Shown one piece after another: positions 1 to 15,501 of a DNA stretch of 64,000 nt. Source of the DNA: an uncultured Pelagibacteraceae bacterium (GTDB taxonomy: Bacteria; Pseudomonadota; Alphaproteobacteria; Pelagibacterales; Pelagibacteraceae); the NCBI GenBank assembly GCA_902595535.1, contig CACJQI010000003.1, positions 20,383 through 84,382 on the forward strand. Reading direction: 5' to 3'. The position numbers and the translations under genes were made by a program. Position 1 is the first letter of the stretch. Each line of letters starts with the position of its first letter. The notes beneath the pieces were generated by a model. That model worked only from the letters and a program-made list of their open reading frames with translations. It made no database searches and was not told the DNA's origin.

Positions 1-99
1 ATCATATTGTTCAAAATGAATTGATTTATATTCAATTGAATTAAGGTACTTTTCTATATGATTTTCAAACTTTTTTTCCGTAGGACTTAACTTATTCAT
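1..99 (-). CDS. hsdR: Type I restriction enzyme R subunit, N-terminal fragment (runs off window edge)
   Basis: Manual translation from the ATG at 99 gives MNKLSPTEKKFENHIEKYLNSIEYKSIHFEQYD, open to the edge. The E-x-x-F-E-x-x-I-E-x-x-L start is typical of HsdR, and it lies 1 nt after the hsdS stop. Confidence 0.7.
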   Translation of the reverse strand, partial: MNKLSPTEKKFENHIEKYLNSIEYKSIHFEQYD

Positions 100-100
100 A

Positions 101-1426
101 TTAAATTTTTTTAATTTTTAATTTACCAGTAACACCTAATGAAATTAAATTGTCTTTATATTCTTTAATTAAGTTTAATTTTTTAATTTTTTTTTTTATT
201 AAAAAATCAATCTTTTCTATTGCAGTATTTAAAAAAGTTACTATTTCTTTTTGTTCATCATTAGGTGGTAAGAAAACTATTAAATTATTTATTGTACCTA
301 ATGATATAAATGGTTGTCCTGTTTGATTTATTTCATTATTAATTATTCCTCTATATTTAAGCATTAACATCCAATAATGAATAAATTCATTGTTATGTCT
401 TTCAGATATTTTTAATTTACAACAATTTCCAGAGATAACAGACGGGTTATCTAGTTTAGGAAGGATTGCTGAGATTCCACAATCTCCAATTTTTGCAATA
501 ATTATATCATTTTCATTACACTCACTTCTTTTTATTTTTTTAAAATGATTTTTTGATATTTTTTTAAATTCTCTCTTTCTATTATTAAAATTACCCTCAT
601 AAAGAAAACCACTTTCTATGACAATAATTTCACCATTTTCATCATAATGTTCACTTTTTAAATCAGATCCGAATGGTCCATCAACAAGAGAATATTTATC
701 TTCAGATTTTATAAATTTAATTTTAGAAATTTTCCAATTTATGGGTATTTTTTTAATTAAATCTAAATTTGTATCTTTCAAATCTTTTTTATTTTCAAAA
801 CTTTTTGTGGTGTAATTAATTATAAGTGATTTTTTTTTCTCCTTTAGAAGGTCGATTTCTTTTTTTAGATTCAAAATTAATTTATTAATAATATTTACTT
901 TTTTATCAAGGTAGTTTGATATGAGTTTTTGATCATTATGTGGAGGAAATGGAAAGTTCATTGAACTCCACATATTCCATCTAAAGTCAGTAGTTCTTTC
1001 TCTAATACCTTTTGCAAGTGAGGTTATTTTTCCAGACTTGGACATGTGCTTAAGGAGGTAAAAAATATATTTCAGTTCAACTCCATCACTTGGTTCTATA
1101 ACAGTATATACTGGTGTGGACTTACCTTTTGAGTCAGAAATACCCATGGCACCTGCAAAACTATCCATTTCATGTATTACCAAATCACCAGGTCTTATTT
1201 GTTGATATCCATGTTCTTTTAAAGAATTTGTAAATCCGTCTTTTTTTTTGTTTTTTCTTAATGTTACAGTCCCATCTCTAAAGCAAGTTACAACTTCATC
1301 AACTTCATCAATTGCCCTTGTAACACGATTTAATTTAAATTTAGGTTTGGCAATTTCCCAATTATTTGGAACTACACCGATCCAATCGATGCCAGTTTCT
1401 TTATAATTTAAATTTTTTTTTACCAT
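101..1426 (-). CDS. hsdS: Type I RM specificity subunit
   Basis: Two TRD-plus-conserved-helix halves: YKETGIDWIGVVPNNW / LKDTNLDLIKKIPINW and FPPHNDQKLISNYLD / LPPNDEQKEIVTFLN. Ends GVTGKL. Overlaps hsdM. Confidence 0.93.
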   Translation of the reverse strand: MVKKNLNYKETGIDWIGVVPNNWEIAKPKFKLNRVTRAIDEVDEVVTCFRDGTVTLRKNKKKDGFTNSLKEHGYQQIRPGDLVIHEMDSFAGAMGISDSKGKSTPVYTVIEPSDGVELKYIFYLLKHMSKSGKITSLAKGIRERTTDFRWNMWSSMNFPFPPHNDQKLISNYLDKKVNIINKLILNLKKEIDLLKEKKKSLIINYTTKSFENKKDLKDTNLDLIKKIPINWKISKIKFIKSEDKYSLVDGPFGSDLKSEHYDENGEIIVIESGFLYEGNFNNRKREFKKISKNHFKKIKRSECNENDIIIAKIGDCGISAILPKLDNPSVISGNCCKLKISERHNNEFIHYWMLMLKYRGIINNEINQTGQPFISLGTINNLIVFLPPNDEQKEIVTFLNTAIEKIDFLIKKKIKKLNLIKEYKDNLISLGVTGKLKIKKI

Positions 1427-3123
1427 AATTCCTTAGACAACTTTTCCGACTCTTCGTCTATTTTTTTTAGTTCCGAAACAATTTCATCTAGATTTCTAAT
1501 TTTTGATAATTTAAAAAAGTATTTTTTAAAATTAATTTCATATCCTATTTTATTTTTTGAATTATCCATAAAAGCATCTGGTACATGTTCAAGTACTTCT
1601 TTTTTAAAAAATTCACTGATATCTTCTTCTAAAGGAATTCTCTCAATATCTCTTTTGGATATATCAGGTTTTATTTGTCCCTTTTTATCTTTTTTTACTT
1701 TTTGACCTTCATACATTGGTCTATCAACAATAACTTTTGTGTAACCAAATGAAATATTAGGTAAAATTTTTGATATTTCACTCTCTTCAAAATTTTTATA
1801 AATCTCAGATAATTCACTGATTTGATCATCGGAAATATAATAACCTTTTTCACCAAGATTTTTTGTTAATGATTTAAAAAAACTCTCACCATTGATTAAT
1901 TGGATTTTATTTTTTCTCAATTTCAATTTTTTATTACTTAAAATCCATATGTATGTAGAAATGCCTGTATTAAAAAACATTTTTTCAGGGAGGGATATAA
2001 TACACTCAAGTAGGTCTTTTTGAATTATCCATTTTCTTATTTCGGACTCACCACTTCCCGCGTCACCAATGAATAGGGGAGATCCATTAAAAATAATTCC
2101 CACCCTAGAACCTTTAGGTTCCATTTTACTGATTAAATGTTGTAAAAATAACAAAGAACCATCTGATGTTCTTGGTGTTCCTGCAAAAAATCTTCCTTCT
2201 GAATTTTTTGACTCATTTTTTACAAAATCTTCTTCTGCTTTCCAACTTACCCCAAATGGTGGATTGGTAACCATATAATCAAACTTTCTATCTTGATGAC
2301 CATCTTCAGATAATGATGAAAACGGACCTTTAATATTTTCAGGATTTTCATCTGCCATTAAAAAATCAGATTTACATATTGCATAAGTCACATCATTTAA
2401 TTCTTGTCCAAATAATTCCACTTTTAATCTTTTATTAATATTTTCATGTATCCATTCTTTTCCAATAGTTAACATTCCACCTGTTCCACAGCATGGATCA
2501 TAAATTGATCTAATTTTATCCTCACCTTTTAGATTTTCTTTATCTCCACCAAAGACGAGGGATACTAAAAGTTTAACAATATCTCTTGGTGTAAAATGAT
2601 CTCCACTTTCTTCATTAGACATCTCTGAGAATTTTCGTAAAAGTTCTTCATACAAAGAACCCATCTTGTGATTATCAACTTTATTAGGATGAAGATCAAA
2701 CTCTGTGAATTTGTCTATGAGAAGATAAAGTTTTTTATTTTTGTTTAATTTAGTTACCAAAGGATCTATTTGAAAATTCTCAATAATATCTAGTACATTT
2801 TTAGAGTAACCTTGAATATAATTGTTAAAATTTTTGTAAACATTGTTTGGGTCACTTTTAATTCTTAATAAATCAAATTTTGAGACATTAAAGAAAGGTA
2901 AGTTTAATTGACTTTGAATAACTTGATTAAAATCTTTTAATTTATTTTTATACTTTTCGTGTAATTCAAATGCCTTGTCTTTTTGAGGATCTAGTACACA
3001 GTCTAATCGTCTAAGAACAACAAATGGAAGAATAATTCGACCATACTCACTAGGTTTGAATAGACCTCTTAATATATCATCTGCCGTGTTCCAAATTAAG
3101 GATGAAAGGTTTTGTTTTTCCAT
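1420..3123 (-). CDS. hsdM: Type I RM N6-adenine methyltransferase subunit
   Basis: N-terminal LIWNTADDILRG..YGRIILPF, SAM motif YDPCCGTGGML, catalytic NPPF, and HFTPRDIV. Confidence 0.95.
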   Translation of the reverse strand: MEKQNLSSLIWNTADDILRGLFKPSEYGRIILPFVVLRRLDCVLDPQKDKAFELHEKYKNKLKDFNQVIQSQLNLPFFNVSKFDLLRIKSDPNNVYKNFNNYIQGYSKNVLDIIENFQIDPLVTKLNKNKKLYLLIDKFTEFDLHPNKVDNHKMGSLYEELLRKFSEMSNEESGDHFTPRDIVKLLVSLVFGGDKENLKGEDKIRSIYDPCCGTGGMLTIGKEWIHENINKRLKVELFGQELNDVTYAICKSDFLMADENPENIKGPFSSLSEDGHQDRKFDYMVTNPPFGVSWKAEEDFVKNESKNSEGRFFAGTPRTSDGSLLFLQHLISKMEPKGSRVGIIFNGSPLFIGDAGSGESEIRKWIIQKDLLECIISLPEKMFFNTGISTYIWILSNKKLKLRKNKIQLINGESFFKSLTKNLGEKGYYISDDQISELSEIYKNFEESEISKILPNISFGYTKVIVDRPMYEGQKVKKDKKGQIKPDISKRDIERIPLEEDISEFFKKEVLEHVPDAFMDNSKNKIGYEINFKKYFFKLSKIRNLDEIVSELKKIDEESEKLSKELW

Positions 3124-3205
3124 TAGTTCATGATAGCAAATTACTGAATAAAATTGAATTTAATCTGTTATTCTTGCAAATACAGTTATAAATATCTAAA
3201 TTTAA

Positions 3206-3538
3206 TTAATCGCTATTCCAAGTAAATAAATCAGCATCAAAAGGTATGTTTCTAAATTTAAGTAAGATTTTATATTTTTCTAATCTTTCCTCTTTCTTAA
3301 ATTTCCCTAAATAATTGAGTATTTGATCATAAGTCAAACTCTTTAAGTATTTCTTTTTAACGTCAACATACTCCTCATAATCCATGCCACATATAGAGAA
3401 TTTTTTTTTGGGATCTATATGTTCTGCATAACTTATCGTATCTTTATTTTCACTTAGAACATCATAAAAATGAGCGATTTGATTATCTCTTTCAAAAAGG
3501 ATATCTCTTCTGAAATCAAACAGTTCTAATTGTTGCAT
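3206..3538 (-). CDS. Hypothetical cytoplasmic protein (110 aa), last gene of the cassette array
   Basis: Clean ORF with no recognised family. Starts MQQLELF. Confidence 0.7.
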   Translation of the reverse strand: MQQLELFDFRRDILFERDNQIAHFYDVLSENKDTISYAEHIDPKKKFSICGMDYEEYVDVKKKYLKSLTYDQILNYLGKFKKEERLEKYKILLKFRNIPFDADLFTWNSD

Positions 3539-3636
3539 ATTTTGGAGTTAATTAAAGTTTTGGAAATAAACTTTAACAATTTTAAATATAACTCTAAATA
3601 GAGGCAATTTTTAGACTTCAAATAGTAGATTTATCT

Positions 3637-3684
3637 TTTGAATTGCTTTTGAATTGCTTTAAATAGTGATGAAGAGTGATGAAG
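3637..3684. repeat. Tandem short repeats TTTGAATTGCT x2 and AGTGATGAAG x2
   Basis: Read directly at 3637-3658 and 3665-3684. Confidence 0.85.
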
Positions 3685-3767
3685 GAATTTTCAAAATGCT
3701 AAGTAAATCAAGTATAATTAGAAACCAGTATGAGAATGTAATCCCCATTGTTCTCAAACAAAAATTC

Positions 3768-3799
3768 AAAAAGGGCAGTTTTTACTGCCCTTTTTTTTT
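3768..3799. terminator. Intrinsic terminator-like hairpin, type A
   Basis: GGGCAGT-TTTT-ACTGCCC (3773-3790), with A5 before and T9 after. Confidence 0.8.
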
Positions 3800-3815
3800 A
3801 CCCGAAACAAAAATC

Positions 3816-3850
3816 TGCAATGAACTTTGCAATGAATGTTCAATGAACTT
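3816..3850 (+). repeat. 12-bp direct repeat array TGCAATGAACTT (3 units, last one degenerate)
   Basis: TGCAATGAACTT TGCAATGAATGT TCAATGAACTT. Confidence 0.9.
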
Positions 3851-4110
3851 TTGAGGGTCGCAAACTAGGTTATAATTAAGTCACTACTTTAAGGGATCTG
3901 TTTGGTAATCTATAAATGCAATAAAGATACTTAAAACTAAGGTCGCATTTAAATCAATTCCTAGAGTATTTTTTCGCAGATACAACACTTACTACTAATT
4001 ATATAGTTTTATATAAATAAGCATACTCTATGACAGACGAACACATAGAATATTTTAACTTTGAGATCGCATTTCTGCGTCTAGGTGGTCGCAAGAGTCT
4101 GACAACTAAC

Positions 4111-4530
4111 TTATTTTTTTACAAACTTACAAGTAGATACAAATTTTTTTGCACGCTCATTAAATATACCATTTTTTTCATAAAGGTTTATATAAAGTTT
4201 CATTTCTTTAAAATCTACAAACATATCGTACGCTCTTGCATTATCCGCAACTAAAGAATATATGTGATATGTTTCTGAATTTACCAATTGAAAACCTGAA
4301 GGAAATTTTTCCCAGTCAGGGATTTGTACGCCATCTATTTCATAAAAATATGATTTTCCTAAATCATTAGTTCTATTGTAATCAATCTTAAAAACAAAAT
4401 TTTTCGGTTTAAACCAGTCTGGATCATGATCTTTTACATCGCAATATAAATATTTAACTCCTTGAATATCTGCTAATCCAATATTAAACCAAGATAAAAA
4501 TATAAAGATGTATAGAGATAGTTTCTTCAT
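4111..4530 (-). CDS. Hypothetical secreted protein (cassette cargo)
   Basis: Signal peptide MKKLSLYIFIFLSWFNIGLA, shared with the 6289-6882 gene. Mature part is unrelated to it and has 2 Cys. Confidence 0.8.
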   Translation of the reverse strand: MKKLSLYIFIFLSWFNIGLADIQGVKYLYCDVKDHDPDWFKPKNFVFKIDYNRTNDLGKSYFYEIDGVQIPDWEKFPSGFQLVNSETYHIYSLVADNARAYDMFVDFKEMKLYINLYEKNGIFNERAKKFVSTCKFVKK

Positions 4531-4606
4531 AGAACTATTTTAACCCAACTCCTCAATGAAGTCACCTTTCTACTTGCTTTCTATTTGAGGCGATTCTGCA
4601 ATGAAC
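4527..4606 (-). repeat. Conserved cassette leader, copy 1 (includes uORF 4527-4565 and a 12-mer at 4597)
   Basis: Plus-strand text aacccaactcctcaatgaagtcacctttctacttgctttctatttgaggcgattctgcaatgaac is homologous to the copies at 5695, 6883 and 7379. Confidence 0.9.
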
Positions 4607-4609
4607 TTC

Positions 4610-4653
4610 TTAAATAAGTGAGTATTGGCAAACTAGGAATGCGAATGTAATCG
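4610..4653 (+). promoter_or_regulatory. Conserved core box with putative sigma70 promoter TTGGCA-N17-TAATCG
   Basis: About 42 bp nearly identical in four copies (4610, 5787, 6185, 7475), with the 17-nt spacing kept in all four. Confidence 0.45.
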
Positions 4654-4674
4654 TTCCAACCCAAAACAAAATTC

Positions 4675-4704
4675 AAAAAGGCGAGTTTTTACTCGCCTTT
4701 TTTT
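4675..4704. terminator. Hairpin type A with compensatory changes
   Basis: GGCGAGT-TTTT-ACTCGCC (4680-4697) followed by T7. Two base pairs covary relative to GGGCAGT/ACTGCCC. Confidence 0.8.
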
Positions 4705-4722
4705 ATGCCTGTCATAAAAATT

Positions 4723-4752
4723 TGCAATGAAGTTTGCAATGAATGTTCAATG
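4723..4752 (+). repeat. 12-bp direct repeat array
   Basis: TGCAATGAAGTT TGCAATGAATGT TCAATG. Confidence 0.9.
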
Positions 4753-4787
4753 TCGGTTGCTTCGTTAATTAATTTAATTAATTTTTT

Positions 4788-4967
4788 TTAATATTTTGAT
4801 GTAATTAAGAAAAATTTGATAACAAGAAATATAAATATCAAACTACCAGCAACAAATATGCGTATACTATCTCCATTAGTACCTTTTTTTTTATAATAAT
4901 CATGAATTTTTCGATCTACTGAAACTCCAATAGCAATCATAACTATTAAAACTAACCAATTGTCCAT
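4788..4967 (-). CDS. Small two-TM membrane protein (59 aa), missing from the ORF track
   Basis: Manual translation: MDNWLVLIVMIAIGVSVDRKIHDYYKKKGTNGDSIRIFVAGSLIFIFLVIKFFLITSKY*. Has an upstream promoter-like sequence. Confidence 0.65.
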   Translation of the reverse strand: MDNWLVLIVMIAIGVSVDRKIHDYYKKKGTNGDSIRIFVAGSLIFIFLVIKFFLITSKY

Positions 4968-4997
4968 TATAAGTAATTAAAAATAAAATTTTTATAG

Positions 4998-5026
4998 AGT
5001 ATACAATATTATTATGTGTATGTGAA
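4998..5026 (-). promoter_or_regulatory. Putative sigma70 promoter for the 59-aa ORF
   Basis: Minus strand TTCACA (5026-5021), 17 nt, TATACT (5003-4998). Confidence 0.5.
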
Positions 5027-5098
5027 TGTAATCTCCTTCCAACAGTCTAATTACCTAGAAAAATTTAAACCCTCGAAATGAAAATTTTGGAGTTTTTT
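5024..5098 (+). repeat. ~75-bp direct repeat, copy 1 (with type B hairpin)
   Basis: gaatgtaatctccttccaacagtctaattacctagaaaaatttaaaccctcgaaatgaaaattttgg is identical to 5820 onward. Confidence 0.92.
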
Positions 5099-5104
5099 AT
5101 TTAA

Positions 5105-5695
5105 TTAATAATTGCGCAACCAATCATCCACTTCTTTTGTTGAAATTGTAACAGAAAGGGCGTCTGTCCAATTATTTTTAATTTTTAAACTTTTTTCATA
5201 TTCTGCACAAGAAACCGTAATTGTATATCCTAAATCAAAATTGAATTGGACATTATGAATATTACTTTTACCAGTAGAATCCCATGGAAATAAATGAGTT
5301 TCTTCACCTATTATATAGTTTTTATATAATTCAGAAAATTCTTTTACAATTTCTTTTTGTTGTGCATAACATTGTTTTATTTTATCGTCATATATAACTG
5401 ACCCTCTAATCGAATAAATTATATAATTTTTGTCGTTTGGTTTTACAAAAAAAGACAAGTCATCGTAAATTTTAAATTTATCATATAAATATACTTCCCC
5501 AAAATCTTCGGTTAGATAATTGTACGCGGGTTTGTTTTTTTCTATTTGAGTTATTATTTTTTCTTCGGACATATGTCGCAATAAAGTGTCTCCAATACTT
5601 ATCCCTTCAATTTCAAAATCTTGGACATCATCACCAAGAGATGGTGCTGAGAAACTAAAGAGAATTAAAAACAAGTAAGTAGATAGTTTTTTCAT
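5105..5695 (-). CDS. Hypothetical secreted protein, paralog of 6289-6882
   Basis: Likely start is the ATG at 5695 (MKKLSTYLFLILFSFSAPSLG). Mature domain DDVQDFEIEGISIGDTLL...SVTISTKEVDDWL aligns end to end with the paralog. Confidence 0.85.
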   Translation of the reverse strand: MKKLSTYLFLILFSFSAPSLGDDVQDFEIEGISIGDTLLRHMSEEKIITQIEKNKPAYNYLTEDFGEVYLYDKFKIYDDLSFFVKPNDKNYIIYSIRGSVIYDDKIKQCYAQQKEIVKEFSELYKNYIIGEETHLFPWDSTGKSNIHNVQFNFDLGYTITVSCAEYEKSLKIKNNWTDALSVTISTKEVDDWLRNY

Positions 5696-5785
5696 CAAAC
5701 CCATTTTATCCCACTCTTCAATGAAGTCACCTTTCTGTTTGCTTTCTATTTGGGGTGATTCTGCAATGAACTTTGCAATGAACTT
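5695..5785 (-). repeat. Conserved cassette leader, copy 2 (uORF 5695-5730; 12-mers at 5762 and 5774)
   Basis: Direct sequence homology to the other leader copies. Confidence 0.9.
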
Positions 5786-5786
5786 C

Positions 5787-5830
5787 TTAAATAAGTAAGT
5801 ATTGGCGTACTATGAATACGAATGTAATCT
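5787..5830 (+). promoter_or_regulatory. Core box, putative promoter TTGGCG-N17-TAATCT
   Basis: -35 at 5802-5807 and -10 at 5825-5830. Confidence 0.5.
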
Positions 5831-5897
5831 CCTTCCAACAGTCTAATTACCTAGAAAAATTTAAACCCTCGAAATGAAAATTTTGGGGGTTTTTTTT
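5820..5897 (+). repeat. ~75-bp direct repeat, copy 2, with type B hairpin/terminator
   Basis: AAACCCTCGAAAT-GAAA-ATTTTGGGGGTTT followed by a T-run. It pairs fully only on the plus strand (two G-U wobbles, GNRA loop). Confidence 0.9.
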
Positions 5898-5900
5898 AAC

Positions 5901-6128
5901 TTATTTTTTTTTTTCAATTGCTGCGATGATTCCGTACCCAGCAAAACAAATAGCAAAAATTACCCACCAAAGCATCGCTGAAACTTCATGTATTGAAGTT
6001 TTTGCTTCATCAAGAGTAAAAACTCCTCCTATAAAAGATAAAAATGATATTGCAGCAAGTATATACTTGAACATATTTCCTTTTATTTTTTCTAAACTAA
6101 CTCTAACCCAAATCAAAAACAAAGTCAT
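5901..6128 (-). CDS. Small two-TM membrane protein (cassette cargo)
   Basis: Start at ATG 6128 (MTLFLIWVRVSL, a diverged leader fused in frame) or ATG 6074 (MFKYILAAISFL, SD AAAGGA). Two hydrophobic helices and a KKK tail. Confidence 0.7.
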   Translation of the reverse strand: MTLFLIWVRVSLEKIKGNMFKYILAAISFLSFIGGVFTLDEAKTSIHEVSAMLWWVIFAICFAGYGIIAAIEKKK

Positions 6129-6159
6129 CTTCTCATACCCTTCTCGTTTCGTCTGATTC

Positions 6160-6228
6160 TGCAGTGAACTTTGCAATGAACTTCTTAAATAAGTGAGTAT
6201 TGGCGTACTATGAATGCGAATGTAATCC
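6160..6228 (+). repeat. 12-mer pair (6160, 6172) plus core box copy with TTGGCG-N17-TAATCC
   Basis: tgcagtgaactttgcaatgaacttcttaaataagtgagtattggcgtactatgaatgcgaatgtaatcc. Confidence 0.88.
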
Positions 6229-6252
6229 CGTTTATTTAGACCTAAAAATTAT

Positions 6253-6290
6253 AAAACCCCCGTTGTTAAACACTTCGGGGTTTTTTTTTT
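6253..6290. terminator. Hairpin type C
   Basis: AAAACCCCCG...CGGGGTTTT followed by a long T-run, abutting the stop codon of 6289-6882. Confidence 0.7.
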
Positions 6291-6882
6291 AATTAATGTG
6301 ATTTCTCAACCAATCCATTACTTCCTTTTTTGAAATTGAAACAGAGAGATTGTCTTGCCAATTATTTTGAATTTTTAGATTTTTTTCATATTCCGCACAA
6401 GAAACTGTAATTACATCACCTGAATTAAAAGTAAAAATGATATTTAGAACATGACTTTTACCAGTAGGATCCCATGGAAACACAAATTTGTCTTCTTCTT
6501 TTCTAGTATTCTTATACAATAAAGAAAATTCTTCTACGATTTCTTTTTGCTTTGCATAACATTTTTCAATGTTATCATCATAAAAAACTGCTCCTCTTAC
6601 ATCGTAGATCATATAATTTTTGTCATTTGATTTTACAAAAAATGATAAAACTTCATAAATTTTAAAATTACCCCTTAAATATACTTCTCCAAATTCATCA
6701 GTTAAATAATTGTATGCAGATTTGTTCACTGCTATTTCATTTGCTATTTCTTCCTTGGACAGATGGTCTAATAAACTATCGCCTATACTAATTCCCTCAA
6801 TCTGATATTCGGATATTTCATCAGCAAAACCAAAATTGCACCACATCAAAACCAAAAAGATGTATAGAGGTAGTTTTTTCAC
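6289..6882 (-). CDS. Hypothetical secreted protein, paralog of 5105-5695
   Basis: GTG at 6882 gives (V)KKLPLYIFLVLMWCNFGFA-DEISEYQIEGISIGDSLL. The frame is open back to 6918 through the fused leader uORF. Confidence 0.85.
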   Translation of the reverse strand: MKKLPLYIFLVLMWCNFGFADEISEYQIEGISIGDSLLDHLSKEEIANEIAVNKSAYNYLTDEFGEVYLRGNFKIYEVLSFFVKSNDKNYMIYDVRGAVFYDDNIEKCYAKQKEIVEEFSLLYKNTRKEEDKFVFPWDPTGKSHVLNIIFTFNSGDVITVSCAEYEKNLKIQNNWQDNLSVSISKKEVMDWLRNHIN

Positions 6883-6950
6883 GAAACTCAGTTTAACCCC
6901 GCTCTTCAATGATGTCACCTTTCTATTTGGGGTGATTCTGCAGTGAAGTT
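6883..6950 (-). repeat. Conserved cassette leader, copy 3 (11-nt deletion; 12-mer at 6939)
   Basis: Lacks gtttgctttct between the two ctttct direct repeats present in copy 2. Confidence 0.88.
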
Positions 6951-7028
6951 TTTAAAAAGATTAGTGTTTATGCGACCAGTATGCGAATGTAGTGAGAATA
7001 TAATCGTTCGTACTCATTTAAAAATTCT

Positions 7029-7083
7029 AAAAGGGCAGTTTTTACTGCCCTTTTTTTTACCCGAAACAAAAATCTGCAATGAA
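7029..7083 (+). repeat. Type A hairpin plus acccgaaacaaaaatcTGCAATGAA, a near-exact repeat of 3769-3824
   Basis: Differs only in T-run length. GGGCAGT (7033-7039) / ACTGCCC (7044-7050). Confidence 0.9.
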
Positions 7084-7133
7084 GTTTTAAGATAGTTAGA
7101 ACACATCGATAACAATAACAAGATCAACTTGTA

Positions 7134-7379
7134 CTATTGTCCATTATTACATTTATATCCATATTGATTGCATAGAGTCACTCTATAAACTTCATTACTA
7201 TACGCCTCTGCTTTGGAAAATAGTCCTTGACCTGTCATTGGAAGTGCGTGCAATAAGACACCCACTGCAAATACACCAAGAATTATTTTAACAGATCTTT
7301 CTAATTTAATCTCGTATTTAACGGTTTTCATATTTCTTCCTTTCAAACTTTGGTCAATTATATTGTAAAGTTTTTTCAT
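7134..7379 (-). CDS. Small single-TM/secreted protein (cassette cargo)
   Basis: ATG 7379 (MKKLYN, a degenerate shared start) or internal ATG 7331 with SD GAAAGGAAG (MKTVKYEIKLERSVKIILGVFAVGVLLHALP). C-terminal CNQYGYKC. Confidence 0.7.
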   Translation of the reverse strand: MKKLYNIIDQSLKGRNMKTVKYEIKLERSVKIILGVFAVGVLLHALPMTGQGLFSKAEAYSNEVYRVTLCNQYGYKCNNGQ

Positions 7380-7518
7380 CAAACCATTTTAACCCCACTC
7401 CTCAACGAAGTCATCTTTCTACTTGCTTTCTAATTGAACAGTTTTATCAATGAACTTTGCAATGAACTTCTTACTTAAATAAGTGAGTATTGGCGTACTA
7501 GGAATACGAATGTAACCG
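7379..7518 (-). repeat. Conserved leader copy 4, 12-mers (7447, 7458) and core box (TTGGCG-N17-TAACCG on plus strand)
   Basis: Direct homology to copies 1-3. Confidence 0.88.
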
Positions 7519-7542
7519 TTCTTACTCAAAACAAAATTCTAT

Positions 7543-7569
7543 AAGGGCAGTTTTTACTGCCCATTTTTT
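7543..7569. terminator. Hairpin type A
   Basis: GGGCAGT-TTTT-ACTGCCC (7545-7562) followed by ATTTTTT. Confidence 0.75.
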
Positions 7570-7604
7570 ATGTATAATCTTTTCAAAATATCTTAAAAAA
7601 AATT

Positions 7605-8195
7605 GTGAAAAAAAAATTAATTATTTTTTTAATATCATTATTAACTTTTCCACTACCTACACTTGCACATGATATTATGGGCAAAGTTGGATTTTATGAT
7701 GGTCTTTTTCATCCAGTTTTAGGATTAGATCATCTCCTGGCCATGATAAGTGTTGGTATAATATCTGTTCAGATCGGTGGTAGAGCTATTTGGACTGTAC
7801 CCTCCATTTTTGTGATCTTAATGACAATTGGTGGTTTGTTTGGATTTTTATTAATTGTTCAAGAATTTTATTTTGTAGAAATTGGAATTGTTTTTTCAGT
7901 AATACTTTTAGGAATTGGAATTAGTATTGAAAATAAAATACCTACCAAATTAATAATGATATTTGTAGCAATTTTCGGTTTGTTTCATGGCATTGCTCAT
8001 GGATTAGAGGTGCCGGCAGCAGCAAATCCTATTTTATTTGTTTTTGGTTTCATCATTGGCACAACCACTTTACACTTATTAGGGGTCGTAATTGGACACG
8101 TATCAATAAAAAATAATATATCTTTAATTTTGTTACGATTAACAGGAGTATCTTTCGCTGTTTATGGAATATATTTGCTAAATCAAATTTTTTAA
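7605..8195 (+). CDS. hupE: HupE/UreJ family Ni/Co transporter
   Basis: Signal peptide then AH. GLFHPVLGLDHLLAM and GLFHGIAHGLE motifs; TTTLHLLG. Confidence 0.9.
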   Translation: MKKKLIIFLISLLTFPLPTLAHDIMGKVGFYDGLFHPVLGLDHLLAMISVGIISVQIGGRAIWTVPSIFVILMTIGGLFGFLLIVQEFYFVEIGIVFSVILLGIGISIENKIPTKLIMIFVAIFGLFHGIAHGLEVPAAANPILFVFGFIIGTTTLHLLGVVIGHVSIKNNISLILLRLTGVSFAVYGIYLLNQIF

Positions 8196-8237: not shown

Positions 8238-8351
8238 ATGTCAAAAAGATATAGTGGAAAATCATTTAAAGACTCAAGCGTTAGTAAAAAACCAAAATTG
8301 AGTCTTAAAGAAAAAAGAAAAATAAAAAAAGAAAAAGCTAAAAAATCTTAA
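8238..8351 (+). CDS. Putative small basic protein (37 aa), missing from the ORF track
   Basis: Manual translation MSKRYSGKSFKDSSVSKKPKLSLKEKRKIKKEKAKKS*. Fills the gap between hupE and the convergent helicase. Confidence 0.45.
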   Translation: MSKRYSGKSFKDSSVSKKPKLSLKEKRKIKKEKAKKS

Positions 8352-8353
8352 AA

Positions 8354-9832
8354 TTATCTTCTTTTTTTATTGTGTTTTTTAAATGTAAAGTTTTTTGGTC
8401 TACTGTTTCTGCTATTAAACTTTTTCTTACCTTTAAAATTAAATTTTTTTCTTTCTCCATCTGATGATAAATTTTCTGAGTTTTGTTTTTCAAGATACTT
8501 CGGGTTATTTGTAAAACCAGCTGGTTTTGTTAACTTTTTTTTAAAAAATTTTTTCTTACTCTTAAAATTATAATCTTTTTTTTCTGTCTCCCTTAATGGT
8601 TTTTCAGATTTTCCTTTTCCAAAAGATTTTCTTTTTTCTTTAAAATTCAATTTTCTTTTTTCTCTTAATTTTCTTTTTTTATTATTAGGTCCCTTGCCTC
8701 TTCTTTTAGTTTTCGAATTTCTTCTTAAATTACTAGGGACCGACTTAAAATTTGGATCAATAAATTTATTTATTGAATTCCACATTAATCTATCTTCAGG
8801 TGTCAAAAAAGTTAGAGCAGATCCATCAGATCCAGCTCTAGCTGTCCTTCCGATTCTATGAACATAATCTTCTGGAACTTGTGGAAGGTCGTAATTAATT
8901 ACATGTTGAATTAAAGGAATATCAAGACCTCTAGCAGCTACATCAGTTGCAATTAAAATTCTTTTTAAACCTTTTCTAAAAGAATTTATAACACGATCTC
9001 TTTTACTTTGACGTAAATCACCATGTATTCCATCTGCAGAATGACCTTCATACTTTAGACGTTTTACCATTTTATCCGCACTTCTCTTTGTTTTTACAAA
9101 AACTAAAATTGATCCTTTTCTTGCTAAAAATTGATCTATTAATTTATCGTATTTATTCTCTTTAAAGACTTGAAGTGTTTCTTGTTTAATTTTAGCAATA
9201 GGAACTGAGGTTGCTCCAGTAGAAATTCTTTCAGGTTTATTTAAATATCTCTCAGAAATTCTTAAAATATTTTGAGGCAAAGTCGCAGAAAATAGTAAAG
9301 TTTGATGATCTTTAGGTACAAATTTTAAAACCATTTCAATTTGCGGAGTAAAGCCCATATCCAACATTCTATCTGTCTCATCTAAAACTAAATATTTTGT
9401 TGCTGATAAATTAAGGCTTTTTCTTTTTAAATGGTCATTAATTCTTCCAGGAGTACCAACTATTATTCTTGATCTATTTCCTAATTGTCTAAGCTGTTTT
9501 TGCATAGACTCACCACCGATAAGTAGAGCTGTTTTAATATTTATCTTATCACTAATAATACTTTTAATTGCCTCCATTACCTGAGTGGCCAACTCTCTCG
9601 TTGGACACATGACCAGTGCAAATGCATTTTTATCTAAAATTAATTTGTTAATTAATGGAATACTAAAGGCTAATGTTTTTCCTGTGCCTGTTTGTGCAGT
9701 TCCAAGTATATCTTTCCCCTCCAACGCAGTTGGTATCGCCATACATTGAATGGGGGTAGGCTTGATAAAATTCATTTTATTTAATGAATTTTTCAAAGAG
9801 TCTTCAATTTTTAATAATTTAAAATTTTCCAT
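8354..9832 (-). CDS. DEAD/DEAH-box RNA helicase
   Basis: Q motif PTPIQ, AQTGTGKT, PTRELA, DETD, SAT, HRIGRTARAG, and a basic C-terminal tail. Confidence 0.93.
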   Translation of the reverse strand: MENFKLLKIEDSLKNSLNKMNFIKPTPIQCMAIPTALEGKDILGTAQTGTGKTLAFSIPLINKLILDKNAFALVMCPTRELATQVMEAIKSIISDKINIKTALLIGGESMQKQLRQLGNRSRIIVGTPGRINDHLKRKSLNLSATKYLVLDETDRMLDMGFTPQIEMVLKFVPKDHQTLLFSATLPQNILRISERYLNKPERISTGATSVPIAKIKQETLQVFKENKYDKLIDQFLARKGSILVFVKTKRSADKMVKRLKYEGHSADGIHGDLRQSKRDRVINSFRKGLKRILIATDVAARGLDIPLIQHVINYDLPQVPEDYVHRIGRTARAGSDGSALTFLTPEDRLMWNSINKFIDPNFKSVPSNLRRNSKTKRRGKGPNNKKRKLREKRKLNFKEKRKSFGKGKSEKPLRETEKKDYNFKSKKKFFKKKLTKPAGFTNNPKYLEKQNSENLSSDGERKKFNFKGKKKFNSRNSRPKNFTFKKHNKKRR

Positions 9833-10009
9833 TTAATGATTAAAGGGTCAGGATATTGATTCTTTATTACGTCTAATTTTAATGGGATATCTATATGTTT
9901 TTAAAACAATCACAAGCAATGAATTTTTAGTTTGAGCTAATTTATCCAGTAAATACTGAATTTTTTTAAGTTTTCAAATCAAAGAATTAATGTATAAGAG
10001 CCAGGATTT

Positions 10010-11836
10010 ATGAACAACAATATCAAAAACATCACCATCATTGCCCATGTTGATCATGGCAAAACCACTCTCATTGATAATTTAATGAAACAAAGTGGAT
10101 CGTTTAGAGAAAACGAGGTTGTTGATGAAAGATTAATGGACTCAGGAGAACTTGAAAAAGAAAGAGGAATCACAATTTTAGCAAAACCTGCTTCAATAAA
10201 TTGGAAAAACTCTAGGGTTAATATCATAGATACACCAGGACACAGGGACTTTGCTGCAGAAGTTGAAAGAGTTTTAAGTATGGCTGATGGCGCATTATTG
10301 CTTATAGACTCAGCTGAAGGTGTAATGCCTCAGACAAAATTTGTACTATCAAAAGCGTTAAAACAGGGTTTAAAACCAATTGTAGTAATTAACAAATTGG
10401 ATAAAGCAGATCAAAGAGCTAATGAAGTTTTAGATGAAACTTTTGATTTATTTGTGAGTTTAGATGCAAATGAAGAACAATTAGATTTTCCTGTATTATA
10501 TGCAAGTGGTAGATCAGGATGGGCTGATACCGAGGTCGATGGGCCAAGAGCAAATTTAAATCCCCTTTTAGATTTAATTGTAGAACATGTGAAGCCAGCT
10601 GAACTTGATAAGACAAAACCTTTTGCAATGCTTTCAACACTTCTTTATGCTGATAGTTTTTTGGGAAGAAGCTTAGTTGGTAAGATTACACAAGGAACTG
10701 CAAAAGCAAATCAATTAATTAAAGCAATTAATCTTAATGGTGAGAAAGTTGATGAAGGAAAATTAACTAAAATTTTTAGGTACGAGGGCACTAAAAAGGT
10801 TCCAATTGAAGTTGGTGAAGCTGGAGATATTGTAGTTGTAGCTGGATTAGAAAAAGCAAATGTAGCTGATACTATTTGTGATCCTGAGGTAATTGAACCA
10901 ATAACTGCAACACCTATAGATCCACCAACAATTTCAATTACTATAACTGTAAATACTTCTCCTCTTGCAGGAACTGAAGGTAAGAAATTAACTAGCACTC
11001 AAATAAGAGATAGATTGCTACAGGAAGCTCAAAACAACGTTGGTATTACTTTCTCAGAAAATGATGGTAACGACTCTTTTGTTTTAAGTGGACGTGGCGA
11101 ACTTATGTTGGAAATCTTACTTACTCAAATGAGAAGAGAAGGATTTGAAATGACCGTAAGTCCTCCTAAAGTATTGTATAAAACTGATGAAAATGGAAAT
11201 AAACTTGAGCCAATTGAAGAAATAACAATGGATTTAGACGAGGAACATTCTTCAAAAGTTATAGATTCAATGAATAGAAGAAAAGGTAAACTTATTGATT
11301 TAAAAGATACTGGTAAAAATAAGAAAAGATTAATATTCCACGCACCAACTAGAGGATTAATGGGATACACAAGTAGATTTCTAACTCTTACAAAAGGAAA
11401 TGGTGTAATTAATAGAATATTCCATAATTATGGCCCTTTTGAAGGAGATATGGAAGGAAGAAGGAACGGCGCTTTAATATCAATGGAAAAAGGTAAAGCA
11501 GTTGCTTTTGCTATTTTTAATTTACAGGCTAGAGGAGAGATGTTCGTAACTCATAATGATCCTGTTTATCCTGGTATGATAGTTGGTCTGTCTCCAAAAC
11601 CCGGTGATATGATCATCAATGTTATGAAAGGTAAAAAACTAACAAACATGAGAACACAAGGAACAGATGACAATGTTGTGTTAACCCCAGTTAGAAAAAT
11701 GTCTATAGCAGAACAATTGAGTATGCTAAATATTGATGAAGCATTAGAAATAACGCCAGATTCGTGTCGATTAAGAAAAGCGATTTTAGATCCTCATGAA
11801 AGAAAAAAAAGTGAAAAAACTGGCGCTGCAGCCTAA
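10010..11836 (+). CDS. typA: Translational GTPase TypA/BipA
   Basis: AHVDHGKTT, ERGITIL, DTPGH, NKLD, GRGELMLEIL. Confidence 0.97.
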   Translation: MNNNIKNITIIAHVDHGKTTLIDNLMKQSGSFRENEVVDERLMDSGELEKERGITILAKPASINWKNSRVNIIDTPGHRDFAAEVERVLSMADGALLLIDSAEGVMPQTKFVLSKALKQGLKPIVVINKLDKADQRANEVLDETFDLFVSLDANEEQLDFPVLYASGRSGWADTEVDGPRANLNPLLDLIVEHVKPAELDKTKPFAMLSTLLYADSFLGRSLVGKITQGTAKANQLIKAINLNGEKVDEGKLTKIFRYEGTKKVPIEVGEAGDIVVVAGLEKANVADTICDPEVIEPITATPIDPPTISITITVNTSPLAGTEGKKLTSTQIRDRLLQEAQNNVGITFSENDGNDSFVLSGRGELMLEILLTQMRREGFEMTVSPPKVLYKTDENGNKLEPIEEITMDLDEEHSSKVIDSMNRRKGKLIDLKDTGKNKKRLIFHAPTRGLMGYTSRFLTLTKGNGVINRIFHNYGPFEGDMEGRRNGALISMEKGKAVAFAIFNLQARGEMFVTHNDPVYPGMIVGLSPKPGDMIINVMKGKKLTNMRTQGTDDNVVLTPVRKMSIAEQLSMLNIDEALEITPDSCRLRKAILDPHERKKSEKTGAAA

Positions 11837-12480
11837 TTATAAATTTTATTAACTAAATATAAACCTAAAGCAACACAGGGGCCTATTCCAAAAGCAAATA
11901 ATAAAGTTCCAAATCCAACTGTGCCTCCTAAGTACCATCCAATTGACATAACCGTTATTTCAAGAGCTGCTCTTACTGATGCAATTGGAAAGTTAGTTTT
12001 TTTTTGAAGACCTATCATTAAACCATCTCTTGGTCCTGCTCCTAAATTAGCGACTAGATATATTCCACCTCCTATACCTACAGTTAGCACTGCAAAAGCT
12101 CCAAGTAATATTTGTGAAATGAAATTTTCTGGTGTTGGAACATATCTAATGCAAACATCAATCATTAATCCTATTATTAAAGCATTTAAAATAGTACCAA
12201 TTCCAGGTTTTTGTTTTAAGGGAAACCAAAGCAACAAAACCATAATACTTATTAAAATAGTCATGAGGCCGATGGAGAAACCTATGTTTAAGTATAAACC
12301 TTGAGCAAATACACTCCAAGGTGATGCTCCAGATGCTGAGACAATTAATAAACCTTCACCTAAACCAAATAAGGTCAAACCAAAACAGAGAAAAAAGAAT
12401 GTTGAAATTTTTGGTTTTAAATTTAGTGGTTTTTCAGAACTCCATGAAACCTTTGGTATATTTTTAATTTGTAAAAACAT
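11833..12480 (-). CDS. YczE/YyaS/YitT-like membrane protein
   Basis: GASPWSVFAQG, PGIGTILN, GAGPRDGLM, GGTVGFGT. Confidence 0.8.
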   Translation of the reverse strand: MFLQIKNIPKVSWSSEKPLNLKPKISTFFFLCFGLTLFGLGEGLLIVSASGASPWSVFAQGLYLNIGFSIGLMTILISIMVLLLWFPLKQKPGIGTILNALIIGLMIDVCIRYVPTPENFISQILLGAFAVLTVGIGGGIYLVANLGAGPRDGLMIGLQKKTNFPIASVRAALEITVMSIGWYLGGTVGFGTLLFAFGIGPCVALGLYLVNKIYN

Positions 12481-12527
12481 TTTAATAAAATACTTCTTTT
12501 ATTATCAAAGTCTATTAAACTAATATT

Positions 12528-13211
12528 TTGATGAAAAAATTTTTATTATTAATATTTTTCTTTTTATACTCTTTCAATAGTACAGCTCATATGGCTCACT
12601 ATAATAAGTATAATAAGATTGAAATGGAAATTTTAAAAGATGGAAAAGTTATTGGATATAATTATTATTTTTTTAAAAAAAATAATAATGAAACAATAGT
12701 CACAAATCAAATAAAGCTTACTGTAAAATTATTAGGTGCAACTTTATTTGAAATAGAAGGTTATGGAGAGGAAAAATATTTAAAAGATAAACTAATTTCA
12801 TTTAACTCAAAAACCCGTCAAAATAAGAAAGAAAAATTTGTAAATCTCAAATTAAATAAAGATACTAATAAATTTGAAATAAAAGGATCATCATACTCAG
12901 GGAAAGCATCAACAGATAATATAGTGGGAAATTGGTGGAACCATAAAATACTTCAATCAAGTAGTCAAATAAGCCCAATATCTGGAAGTATTAAAGAACA
13001 AGTGGTCACATTTATAGGTAAAGAAAAACTAGATCTTTACGGAAAATCTTATGATGTTGAACATTTTAAATTAACATCCAAAGATATGTCTATTCCAAAA
13101 AATAAAAGATTAAATTTTGATATCTGGTTTGATAAAAAAAATGCTTTAATTATGAAAGTTACATATTCTAGAATGGGTGATTGGGAATATAGAGTTAAAA
13201 ATTTTGAGTAG
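12528..13211 (+). CDS. Conserved secreted protein (DUF6134-like)
   Basis: Signal peptide and a beta-rich domain with GNWWNH. Family recalled from memory, not searched. Confidence 0.6.
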   Translation: MMKKFLLLIFFFLYSFNSTAHMAHYNKYNKIEMEILKDGKVIGYNYYFFKKNNNETIVTNQIKLTVKLLGATLFEIEGYGEEKYLKDKLISFNSKTRQNKKEKFVNLKLNKDTNKFEIKGSSYSGKASTDNIVGNWWNHKILQSSSQISPISGSIKEQVVTFIGKEKLDLYGKSYDVEHFKLTSKDMSIPKNKRLNFDIWFDKKNALIMKVTYSRMGDWEYRVKNFE

Positions 13212-13213
13212 AA

Positions 13214-14185
13214 TTATTTAATTATTTTTTTATAAAGATCATTAGCACTTAACCAACCTGCCTCTAGTCTAGGTCCTATAAACCAGTCTGCACAAACACC
13301 TAAATTTATTGACGGATCCCAAAAACTCTTCATTTTTAATGGATTTGAATTTGAAGAATATTTCCATCCATGATTAAGTGAATGTAATATTTTTGTTTTT
13401 TTTATACCAGTAAGTTTAAAGAAATGATTAATTAAAATTTGTGAATTTAAATCTTTGTTTTCCTTATTTTTATTAATTTTTTTGTTTGCCCAATTGTATG
13501 TACTTTGCAAAGTCCATAGATCAAAATTACTTTTAAATCTTTTTTTACTATTTTCTTTAGCAGCCCAACCTAAAATTTTATTATCAAAAAAATAACTACT
13601 AAAATTATTTTTTGTTTTTTTAATTACAATCATTACAGTGATATTTGCATCCATTTTAACTCTTGATTTGATAAATGGATTTTTTATAAATTTTTTAGAT
13701 AATTTATATAATTGCTCAAATGGGCAAGTTAAAATTAGCTTATTATAAATTTTTTTCTCCCCATTAGAAAAAGTTAAAAACCATTTTTTTTGTTTATAAT
13801 CAATTTTTTTAAGCTCATATAAATAATTACATTTTATATTTTTTAAAAGATATTTGCTGATATCATTATTACCTTTGCAACCAATTATTTTTTTATGATT
13901 TTTAATTTCTTTTTTAATTTTATTTAAAAATAAATGTTTGCCCCTCCAGTTTTTTAAAACCTTTTTTTTTATTAATTTTTCTAAGAATCTTTTAAATGCT
14001 AAAGTTTTAGGTGAGATATATTGAGTCCCATGATCAAATCCTTTTGTTTCATCAAGCCTTTTAAAAGATGCTCTACCACCAGGACCTCTAGCTTTATCAA
14101 AAAGATCGACCGAATTTTTTTTGCTTAAAAGATTTGCAATTGTTGCTCCTGAAATTCCTGAGCCAATTACACAAAAATTACTCAT
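13214..14185 (-). CDS. NAD(P)/FAD-dependent oxidoreductase (renalase-like)
   Basis: GSGISG, DKARGPGGRAS, FDHGTQY, HGWKYS, CADW. Confidence 0.82.
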   Translation of the reverse strand: MSNFCVIGSGISGATIANLLSKKNSVDLFDKARGPGGRASFKRLDETKGFDHGTQYISPKTLAFKRFLEKLIKKKVLKNWRGKHLFLNKIKKEIKNHKKIIGCKGNNDISKYLLKNIKCNYLYELKKIDYKQKKWFLTFSNGEKKIYNKLILTCPFEQLYKLSKKFIKNPFIKSRVKMDANITVMIVIKKTKNNFSSYFFDNKILGWAAKENSKKRFKSNFDLWTLQSTYNWANKKINKNKENKDLNSQILINHFFKLTGIKKTKILHSLNHGWKYSSNSNPLKMKSFWDPSINLGVCADWFIGPRLEAGWLSANDLYKKIIK

Positions 14186-15498: not shown

Positions 15499-15501
15499 TT
15501 T

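Follow-up and report, generated by a model that had tools for sequence, protein, structure and literature searches.

Co-oriented small genes separated by a putative groEL-derived attachment module in a Pelagibacteraceae island

What could place seven small genes, most of them unrelated to one another, behind copies of the same non-coding DNA? The question is posed by a 64,000-nucleotide (64-kb) stretch of DNA from an uncultured Pelagibacteraceae bacterium (contig CACJQI010000003.1, positions 20,383 to 84,382), referred to here as the window. Between 3206 and 7382 it carries seven open reading frames (ORFs), all co-oriented on the minus strand and separated by a composite non-coding module that does not occur in the remaining ~59 kb. 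An earlier note on this DNA had described an array of small unrelated genes (ORFs beginning at 3206, 4111, 4788, 5105, 5901, 6289 and 7134), each with a portable terminator/promoter module, and both the ORF list and our analysis bear this out. We think it probable that the array arose by tandem accretion of integrase-less cassettes, each carrying a promoter and flanked by attachment (att) sites, in an island of a SAR11 genome that starts at the 3′ end of groEL.

A repeated module between the genes

Read on the minus strand, the module runs in the order T′-U-H-S-X-R-T-second tandem pair-T3 and ends in a −10-like box. T′ consists of one to three CATTGMA 12-mers, U is an A-rich linker, H is a hairpin terminator and S is a spacer. 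X (TTACATTCNCATTCC) is the reverse complement of a reading "...G M R M stop". T comprises two 12-mers and is followed by a second pair, of tandem 11-mers; T3 is a third 12-mer site which overlaps a −35-like GTGACT, and the module closes with a −10-like TAAAAT or TAAACT box 5-7 nt ahead of the start codon. The 44-nt core GATTACATTCGCATTCNTAGTACGCCAATACTCACTTATTTAAG occurs in four copies at two mismatches or fewer, and a 32-nt leader block also in four, with none expected for either. X (TTA[CT]ATTC...) is present seven times, and the 12-mer TTCATTGCA 11 times against an expectation of 1.35, with ten occurrences inside 3816-7466 and one in the other 59 kb.

The pairwise matches between modules that the earlier note had listed were all recovered: 5017-5107 and 5813-5903 are 91% identical, and 3755-3845 is 85% identical to 4662-4752 and 63% identical to 7014-7104. 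The copies are mosaic, as had been claimed, combining three hairpin types (H1 in copies A, B, F and G; H2 in D and E; H3 in C) with a variable T′. The proposed layout of hairpin, core, 12-mers and leader holds in its elements and requires amendment in their arrangement. Tandem 12-mers flank the hairpin and core on both sides rather than lying only downstream, with T′ at 3816-3847, 4723-4752 and 7075-7083 (copies G, F and B), while copy E has only hairpin and core, and copy G has a variant arm.

The groEL end and the integrase-linked sites

Using the 196-aa cargo family described below as bait, we fetched 13 Pelagibacteraceae loci. In several of these, genes are separated by another repeat, AAGGGGCGTTCTGTTGCCAGGTGCCCC, in up to seven copies of a single orientation, which corresponds to the 3′ end of the permuted transfer-messenger RNA (tmRNA) gene bordering those islands. 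Such AAGGGGCGTTCTGTTGCCAGGTGCCCC arrays are the classic footprint of serial site-specific insertion, and the displaced tmRNA ends at these ssrA islands raised the question of which gene end the core in the window copies. In L004 the stop of groEL is directly adjoined by a lone cassette that carries the module of the window. Contigs that reach groEL carry the 12-mer(s), the A-rich linker, the hairpin and a TTTTTGAATTTT spacer, followed by TTACATTCCCATTCCGCCCAT, the reverse complement of the ...GGMGGM-stop tail of GroEL. In L088, L105, L116 and L126 the genuine groEL stop with its GGM tail follows immediately on the string T′-U-H1-S, and an H2-S2 string is continued likewise in L004/L134, L160 and L165. 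Module D of the window has an H2 that shares 87.5% identity with the genuine groEL terminator in L004, and window module G differs from L126 only beyond TTACATTC.

Since these module strings continue into real groEL stops, the hairpins of the window are groEL terminators, H1 and H2 each being the real terminator in a different lineage, and the core opens with 15 nt (TTACATTCGCATTCC, giving G-M-R-M-stop in the opposite direction) that are a displaced pseudo-copy of the groEL end. The seven X copies are homologous to real groEL stops and bound the units as direct repeats of the target 3′ end. Between cassettes, inverted repeats are limited to simple G+C terminator hairpins with T runs after them, which upholds the earlier statement that attC sites are absent. 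Mean identity was 84% for the module as compared with 63% for the groEL 3′ end, a difference that is inflated by fetching with an exact 27-mer.

Three integrases were found among 25 long module-bearing contigs. The integrase of L099, which matches Phage_int_SAM_5 and phrog_1, ends directly beside the reverse complement of a T′x3-U-hairpin-S-pseudo-groEL-end string, and the 12-mers there (TTGCAATGTAG) are homologous to those of the window. Its family has 412 homologues, several of them in named Pelagibacter assemblies. In L195 the integrase is convergent with groEL, and the two are separated only by CATTGAA x3, linker U, the hairpin, spacer S and the X/groEL stop. L196, from a Pelagibacter genome, carries an 8.4-kb element with an integrase, a serine resolvase and small ORFs. 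This element has direct repeats GGAATGGGAATGTAA (the true groEL end) and ATGCGAATGTAA (X′), an H2 terminator after X′, and TTCAATGTACT three times on one arm and twice on the other. In L199-L206 a full T′x5-U-H-S-X-R-Tx2-(tandem CACAAGTCTAAAGG x2)-T3 site comes directly after an integrase and a 62-aa ORF, and beyond it lies the other element end; this site is either attP or a junction between tandem copies. It aligns colinearly with window modules F and G and is 72-78% identical to window modules by blastn, and window module A is colinear with attP. In the window, as in all integrase-linked sites, the distance between X and the CATTGMA 12-mers is 30-55 nt on the P′ side and 60-90 nt on the P side. 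An integrase gene stands beside an att site in L099, L195, L196 and L199 and not in the window. The earlier report of no integrase is accordingly correct within the window, and it needs the addition of a cognate family located at the same site in Pelagibacter genomes.

The integrase model comprises an N-terminal four-strand sheet plus helix (predicted local distance difference test score 81-89), a helical core-binding domain and a catalytic domain. The modelled N-terminal portion is consistent with an arm-binding domain; the family has no Pfam arm-domain match, and a PDB sequence search with the integrase profile returned no match. The module may be a heterobivalent (lambda-Int-like) att site, a type that has arm repeats on both sides of the core at distances of tens of bp and is served by an integrase with an N-terminal arm-binding domain. 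All of these integrase elements carry a serine resolvase/invertase (PF00239, phrog_125). Two integrase-bearing elements follow groEL one behind the other at L198 (3117-21233), and in both the integrase is oriented convergently with a DOPA-dioxygenase-like gene. This arrangement may represent another protein-gene target or a duplication of the att region.

These comparisons suggest that the module is an attachment site in which a groEL pseudo-stop and terminator are combined with arm-type tandem repeats. It would be the equivalent of attP, formed by attR of one unit and attL of the next with one core in common. Each unit would then consist of a P′ arm (R, two 12-mers, second tandem repeat, T3), the cargo, and a P arm (optional T′, linker, terminator, spacer), with X between units. 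The units of the window are bounded by att sites of a related integrase element and have no recombinase of their own. Because they lack an integrase, any movement must rely on an integrase supplied in trans, and mobilization of this kind is what we infer for them. The supplier would be a three-domain tyrosine integrase encoded by 8-9 kb elements of the same family, which would bind the 12-mers through its N-terminal arm-binding domain and recombine X either with the stop of groEL or with whichever X has been displaced. Every insertion would provide a replacement groEL end and terminator while displacing the older copy outwards, and an array would result. An outward promoter in the P′ arm would express the cargo upon arrival, probably from a leaderless or near-leaderless message that the hairpin terminates, and the closely similar modules could subsequently act as portable homology for deletion, swapping and mosaicism.

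The case for a promoter comes from the P′ arm, where a −35-like GTGACT/ATGACT overlaps T3. Of 50 independent module copies, 40 have a TAAAAT/TAAACT box ahead of the start codon at a distance of 4-7 nt (mostly 5-7). No Shine-Dalgarno sequence at a usable distance was found in the module leaders. Together these features point to a putative outward promoter whose mRNA would be leaderless or nearly so. The core of the 12-mer, TTCATTGAA, is almost perfectly palindromic (TTCA-T-TGAA), for example in the T sites at 5717-5725 and 3839-3847; this causes weak T/T3 pairing when the RNA is folded, and would make an apt site for a DNA-binding protein that acts as a dimer.

The surroundings of the array are those of a groEL island. 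On contigs taken in module orientation, a tiny basic ORF and a DEAD helicase lie on one side and groEL/groES on the other, and the island between them ranges from ~1.6 kb (L116, an 'empty' module) to >8 kb (L185). Gene order in L196 is groES-groEL, island, basic ORF, DEAD helicase, typA, DUF6198, DUF6134, oxidase and two PmbA/TldD genes. This order and the gene lengths agree with window ORFs 8239-16926, the proteins of 215, 226, 323, 438 and 470 aa matching ORFs 11833-16926. An att remnant adjoins the basic ORF in L196, and window module G matches it at 80% identity over 168 nt (blastn). The 64-kb window does not contain groEL and begins inside the island, in hsdS. Since its right flank (basic ORF, DEAD helicase, typA) is that of the groEL/DEAD island in L196, groEL is predicted to lie left of the window, beyond the type I restriction-modification (RM) genes. 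What had been called an hsdM-hupE locus is therefore better described as the groEL/DEAD-helicase island, and hupE and the RM genes are themselves flexible cargo in it. This island is distinct from hypervariable regions HVR1-4.

We also scanned metagenomes with a 27-nt module pattern, and the sample of modules so obtained is biased by that exact 27-mer. The module was found on at least 120 metagenome contigs. The 86 ORFs linked to it fall into 49 clusters, with 38 singletons, so that it precedes at least 49 unrelated cargo families. A signal-peptide or transmembrane-like N-terminus is present in only 32 of the 86, and the cargo is thus not confined to envelope proteins, as the earlier note had suggested it to be. 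In four metagenomes the depth of module words was 10^3 to 3x10^4 as compared with 0-100 for cargo. Joints, taken from de Bruijn unitigs, reveal presence/absence variants with breakpoints in the module, in line with the earlier proposal. One form in metagenome X4 lacks 3794-7563, with its joint in the hairpin and a G-type remnant abutting hupE. Given this form, and the G-type remnant beside the basic ORF in L196, the six cassettes between look like an insertion block at a displaced X. Some module copies are truncated at T3 or lack cargo ('empty' modules). A 12-mer-pair scan of IMG/VR viral contigs did not find the module, its 46 matches all being unrelated coding repeats.

The module copies, their cargo and parallel arrays

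In the direction of transcription, the array opens with module A (7383-7562, minus strand), which contains H1 at 7545-7562, S at 7516-7544, X at 7501-7515 (a pseudo-copy of the last groEL codons and stop), R at 7474-7500, T at 7446-7466, tandem TAGAAAG at 7415-7432, T3 at 7402-7412 and a −10-like TAAAAT at 7386-7391. It precedes cargo 1 (7134-7382, minus), a 65-aa membrane protein when read from ATG 7331, one of three probable true starts internal to the listed ORFs (the others are GTG 6882 and ATG 6074). Codons 7332-7382 (MKKLYNIIDQSLKGRN) are an in-frame fused remnant of the module's signal-peptide start (MKKLY...), placed upstream of this unrelated ORF, which has its own ribosome-binding site and ATG at 7331. 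A copy of cargo 1 in metagenome contig L152 has 92% aa identity and shows the same leader and fusion. The fused start looks like a scar from cargo swapped inside the module.

Module B (6883-7133, minus) has T′ at 7075-7083, U at 7051-7074, H1 at 7033-7050, S at 7004-7032, X at 6992-7003, a degenerate R, T at 6939-6947, T3 at 6906-6916 and a −10-like TAAACT at 6890-6895. Cargo 2 (6289-6882, minus), a 197-aa secreted protein of the EGISIGD family, follows. Module C (6075-6288, minus), with H3 at 6257-6280, X at 6214-6225, R at 6184-6199, T at 6160-6180 and a divergent leader, precedes cargo 3 (5901-6074, minus), a 57-aa protein with two transmembrane segments. Module D (5696-5900, minus) has H2 at 5866-5889, the spacer at 5828-5865, X at 5816-5827, R at 5786-5801, T x2 at 5762-5782, T3 at 5718-5728 and a −10-like TAAAAT at 5703-5708. 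It is followed by cargo 4 (5105-5695, minus), a 196-aa secreted protein of the EGISIGD family. Cargos 2 and 4 are paralogues, with 62% aa identity and 77% nt identity across 300 nt. The cargo 4 family has >1200 metagenome homologues; it has no Pfam match, and a fold search against PDB gave no match at E<=1e-3.

The truncated module E (4968-5104, minus) has H2 at 5070-5092 and X at 5020-5031, lacks R, T and L, and contains a promoter-like TTCACA-17-TATACT of its own (5026-4998). Downstream is cargo 5 (4788-4967, minus), a 59-aa protein with two transmembrane segments. The most complete copy is module F (4531-4787, minus), with T′ at 4723-4752, U at 4698-4722, an H1 variant (GGCGAG..CTCGCC) at 4680-4697, S at 4651-4679, X at 4639-4650, R at 4609-4624, T at 4597-4605, TAGAAAG x2 at 4566-4583, T3 at 4553-4563 and a −10-like TAAAAT at 4537-4542. 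It precedes cargo 6 (4111-4530, minus), a 139-aa secreted protein that has only the signal peptide in common with the family; the MKKLSLY start is common to cargo 6 and the remnant preceding cargo 1. A 255-nt non-coding tail (3855-4110) comes after cargo 6. By eye it resembled the interior of an integrase element, a likeness we dropped when blastn did not recover it.

Module G (3539-3854, minus) carries T′ x3 at 3816-3847, H1 at 3773-3790, X at 3730-3741 and, in its variant arm, tandem CTTCATCACT x2 at 3665-3684 and AAAGCAATTCA x2 at 3639-3660. Cargo 7 (3206-3538, minus), a 110-aa cytoplasmic ORF, continues into hsdM (1420-3123) and hsdS (101-1426), with which it probably forms one larger cassette. 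The gap to hsdM is 82 nt and the genes may be co-transcribed; metagenome X4 has cargo 7 without hsdM. No significant Pfam, PHROG or PADLOC assignment was obtained for any of the seven cargo proteins, and exact-sequence look-ups of the window proteins gave no record. A scan of the window for transfer RNA (tRNA) and tmRNA genes found none, and Rfam scans at gathering and E-value thresholds gave only sub-threshold matches, all at terminator hairpins.

On the other side of the array, hupE/ureJ (7605-8195, plus strand) occupies the space from the outermost att remnant to the island border. Like the type I RM genes (hsdM and hsdS; 1-3123), it is flexible: its depth is near 0 in three of four metagenomes, a joint 7620->8305 marks a deletion, and a copy in L128 has 81% aa identity. 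By metagenome depth, conserved sequence resumes at 8238. The island border ORF (8239-8351, plus), ahead of the DEAD helicase and typA, encodes a tiny conserved basic protein of 37 aa (MSKRYSGKSFKD...) and is kept at the border in L116, L128, L185 and L196. This lysine-rich ORF (MSKRYSGKSFKDSSVSKKPKLSLKEKRKIKKEKAKKS), which falls under the ORF-list cut-off and has high coverage in all four metagenomes, probably represents a genuine core gene that lacks annotation.

In L001 (5064-11318), L005 (7072-10183), L008 (376-5848) and L009 (7493-12191), small ORFan cassettes with displaced tmRNA 3′ ends between them form arrays next to ssrA/thyX. Some of these cassettes are flanked on either side by tandem 9-mers that match each other (GTGCGGA, GTGTATGCT, TGAGTCC). 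A scan of viral contigs for the tmRNA core found tmRNA genes in myophage-like contigs, with no integrase and no attP. These IMG/VR contigs (L016-L019, L022, L023, L025 and L028; NrdB, PAAR and baseplate genes) carry a permuted alpha-type tmRNA whose 3′ end is identical over at least 25 nt to the SAR11 ssrA end serving as att core. In the single-amplified genome AG-464-P07 (L002, L006, L007), paralogues of the 196-aa family lie ~100 nt downstream of tRNA-Gly(gcc), tRNA-Leu(caa) and tRNA-Leu(tag), with tandem 11-mers TTGTCACACAC, GGCACACACTC and CTCATACACG around them; a single genome thus holds this cargo family at several att loci. L192 is an independent case of arm-like tandem repeats in SAR11 islands: where its P4-type integrase element (Arm-DNA-bind_3) ends, near tRNA-Val/Asp, there are ACGGGAATCAGGT x3 and CTTACTCA x2 (3140-3175, 3500-3525).

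Accretion, shuffling and known systems

Several observations weigh against accretion by a site-specific integrase. Joints occur at many module positions, which fits homologous as well as site-specific recombination, and neither an excised circle nor a cassette-specific empty site was observed. Copies C, D and E lack T′ and copy E lacks the entire P′ arm, so not every unit would be a competent substrate. The left border is outside the window, where adjacency to groEL is predicted, not seen. A tblastn search of the 64 kb with the integrases and resolvase of related loci detected no relative (best E 0.24); Pfam scans covered only some of the window ORFs. The junction in L199 could reflect a tandem dimer instead of a circle; the fold matches of the integrase to Cre, TelA and Tn1549 Int are weak (E 0.012-0.05). 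In L196 (2470-10895), where the integrase adjoins T-R-X′ and is co-directional with groEL, the element interior is inverted relative to the att arms as compared with L195 and L199. Matched subterminal repeats, considered as a general rule for the ssrA arrays, were rejected with only 4 of 18 cases clear (p = 0.10).

Could a portable terminator-promoter unit spread by RecA-dependent recombination, with no site-specific recombinase acting today, explain the array without accretion? The copies are mosaic, with three hairpin types interleaved and T′ variably present, and the scattered joints between copies, the 'empty' modules produced by T-T′ deletions and the lack of an integrase in the window are all as this explanation would have it. 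It also agrees with the published view of SAR11, in which exchange of one- or two-gene islands is ascribed to homologous recombination at conserved positions and there are 'no canonical mobile genetic elements' (PMC11796062). Shuffling alone nevertheless leaves the displaced groEL stop/terminator in every unit unexplained, and it accounts neither for the colinear site beside an integrase gene nor for the direct repeats flanking an integrase element. We regard it as an unlikely explanation for the whole. Truncated, empty and mosaic module copies show that homologous recombination between modules is clearly a second layer; shuffling is probably a real secondary process and not the origin. The earlier proposal of a recombination-shuffled cassette system was right as to modularity and mosaicism, and missed that the module appears to be an attachment site and not just a promoter with a stem-loop.

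It is very improbable that the module is a shared cis-regulatory region, the promoter, operator or structured 5′ leader of one regulon, with the 12-mers as operators spread by gene duplication. The conserved 165 nt do extend right to the start codon, the −10-like box and the T3/−35-like overlap are where a regulatory region would have them, and TTCATTGAA is nearly palindromic. However, 12-mers are also found downstream of cargo, past the stop codon, the upstream half consists of groEL terminator and stop and not of regulatory sequence belonging to the cargo, and the 49 cargo clusters are unrelated. A structured leader was ruled out: the alifold consensus of 50 module sequences reached only -3.7 kcal/mol, changes were one-sided only with no covariation, and there was no Rfam match. 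Old tandem duplication of one secreted-protein gene and its upstream region, followed by divergence and decay, is scarcely credible, since it would explain the cargo 2/4 paralogues and the common MKKLSLY start but not the unrelated remainder, the different lineage-specific groEL terminators of the copies, the presence of the module ahead of dozens of unrelated genes elsewhere, in different genomes and loci, or the variant without six cassettes.

Accretion at groEL may be part of something wider. We suggest, tentatively and with more doubt than confidence, that SAR11 possesses a 'distributed integron' in which hundreds of single-gene mini-cassettes, each with a full attP-like site and promoter, are captured in trans by a few 8-9 kb integrase elements at groEL, ssrA and tRNA 3′ ends. 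If true, this would be one of the chief ways in which a lineage described as having no canonical mobile elements acquires flexible genes. SAR11 is the ocean's most abundant bacterial lineage, and the array suggests a route by which it gains new genes, a concrete and testable mechanism for streamlined genomes to sample genes singly. It also explains why short-read assemblies break at these islands. The module can serve as a probe for mining cassette cargo in metagenomes, and the P′ arm is a candidate native expression signal for SAR11 genetics. In a literature search that covered few subscription journals, we found no account of a groEL-stop target, of the att/promoter module, of the cognate integrase family or of 0.3-1.2 kb multi-cassette arrays, and an earlier description is possible. 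Four SAR11 islands have been reported to carry partial tRNA repeats that mark 'insertion of a gene cassette' (PMC11796062).

The earlier note had likened the array to integrons and to the promoter-stem-loop (PeSL) cassettes of T4-type phages. Both analogies describe its behaviour, and it is a member of neither. Like integron arrays, it consists of co-oriented, mostly promoter-proximal single-gene cassettes of unassigned function with huge cargo diversity across the population, and capture would likewise be by a tyrosine recombinase. Unlike them, it has no intI/attI/Pc platform and no attC hairpins (Wilhelm et al. also found no attC sites; PMC2217521), its sites being double-stranded and attP-like with arm repeats; every cassette has its own putative promoter, and the integrase is encoded elsewhere. 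The tblastn search of the 64-kb window found no integrase relative, and the island ORFs have no such Pfam domain. With PeSL units it has in common a terminator hairpin plus promoter between ORFans and portable homology. It differs in residing on a Pelagibacteraceae chromosome and not in a phage, and in adding a target-gene pseudo-end and integrase-linked arm-type repeats.

Integrative islands are closer. The dusA-specific integrases (PMC4482086) also have one protein-coding target for which the island supplies a replacement gene end, but they use the dusA 5′ end where the groEL 3′ end is used here, and theirs is a family without mini-cassette arrays. Tyrosine-integrase islands at tRNA and tmRNA 3′ ends, including tandem arrays, are catalogued in the Islander database (PMC4383910). 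As in those islands, each insertion here displaces a target 3′ end and restores the target, repeated insertion yields tandem arrays, and SAR11 relatives show just this pattern at ssrA. In contrast to them, the target is protein-coding (the groEL stop/terminator), and the units are 0.3-1.2 kb, usually of one gene, integrase-less and equipped with their own putative outward promoter.

Cis-mobilizable elements (CIMEs), known from site-specific accretion with ICESt1 and ICESt3 in Streptococcus thermophilus, are integrase-less elements that are bounded by functional att sites and accumulate in tandem. The units described here resemble them in being integrase-less and tandem and in apparently sharing att sites with an integrase-bearing relative. 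They differ in that there is no conjugative system and the cassettes are tenfold smaller and far more numerous and diverse population-wide. The class is already known, as tyrosine-integrase islands that duplicate the target 3′ end, undergo tandem accretion and have integrase-less, CIME-like derivatives; to it the present array adds an integrase family aimed at the groEL stop, an abundant conserved att/promoter module, and arrays of tiny cassettes that reuse the site.

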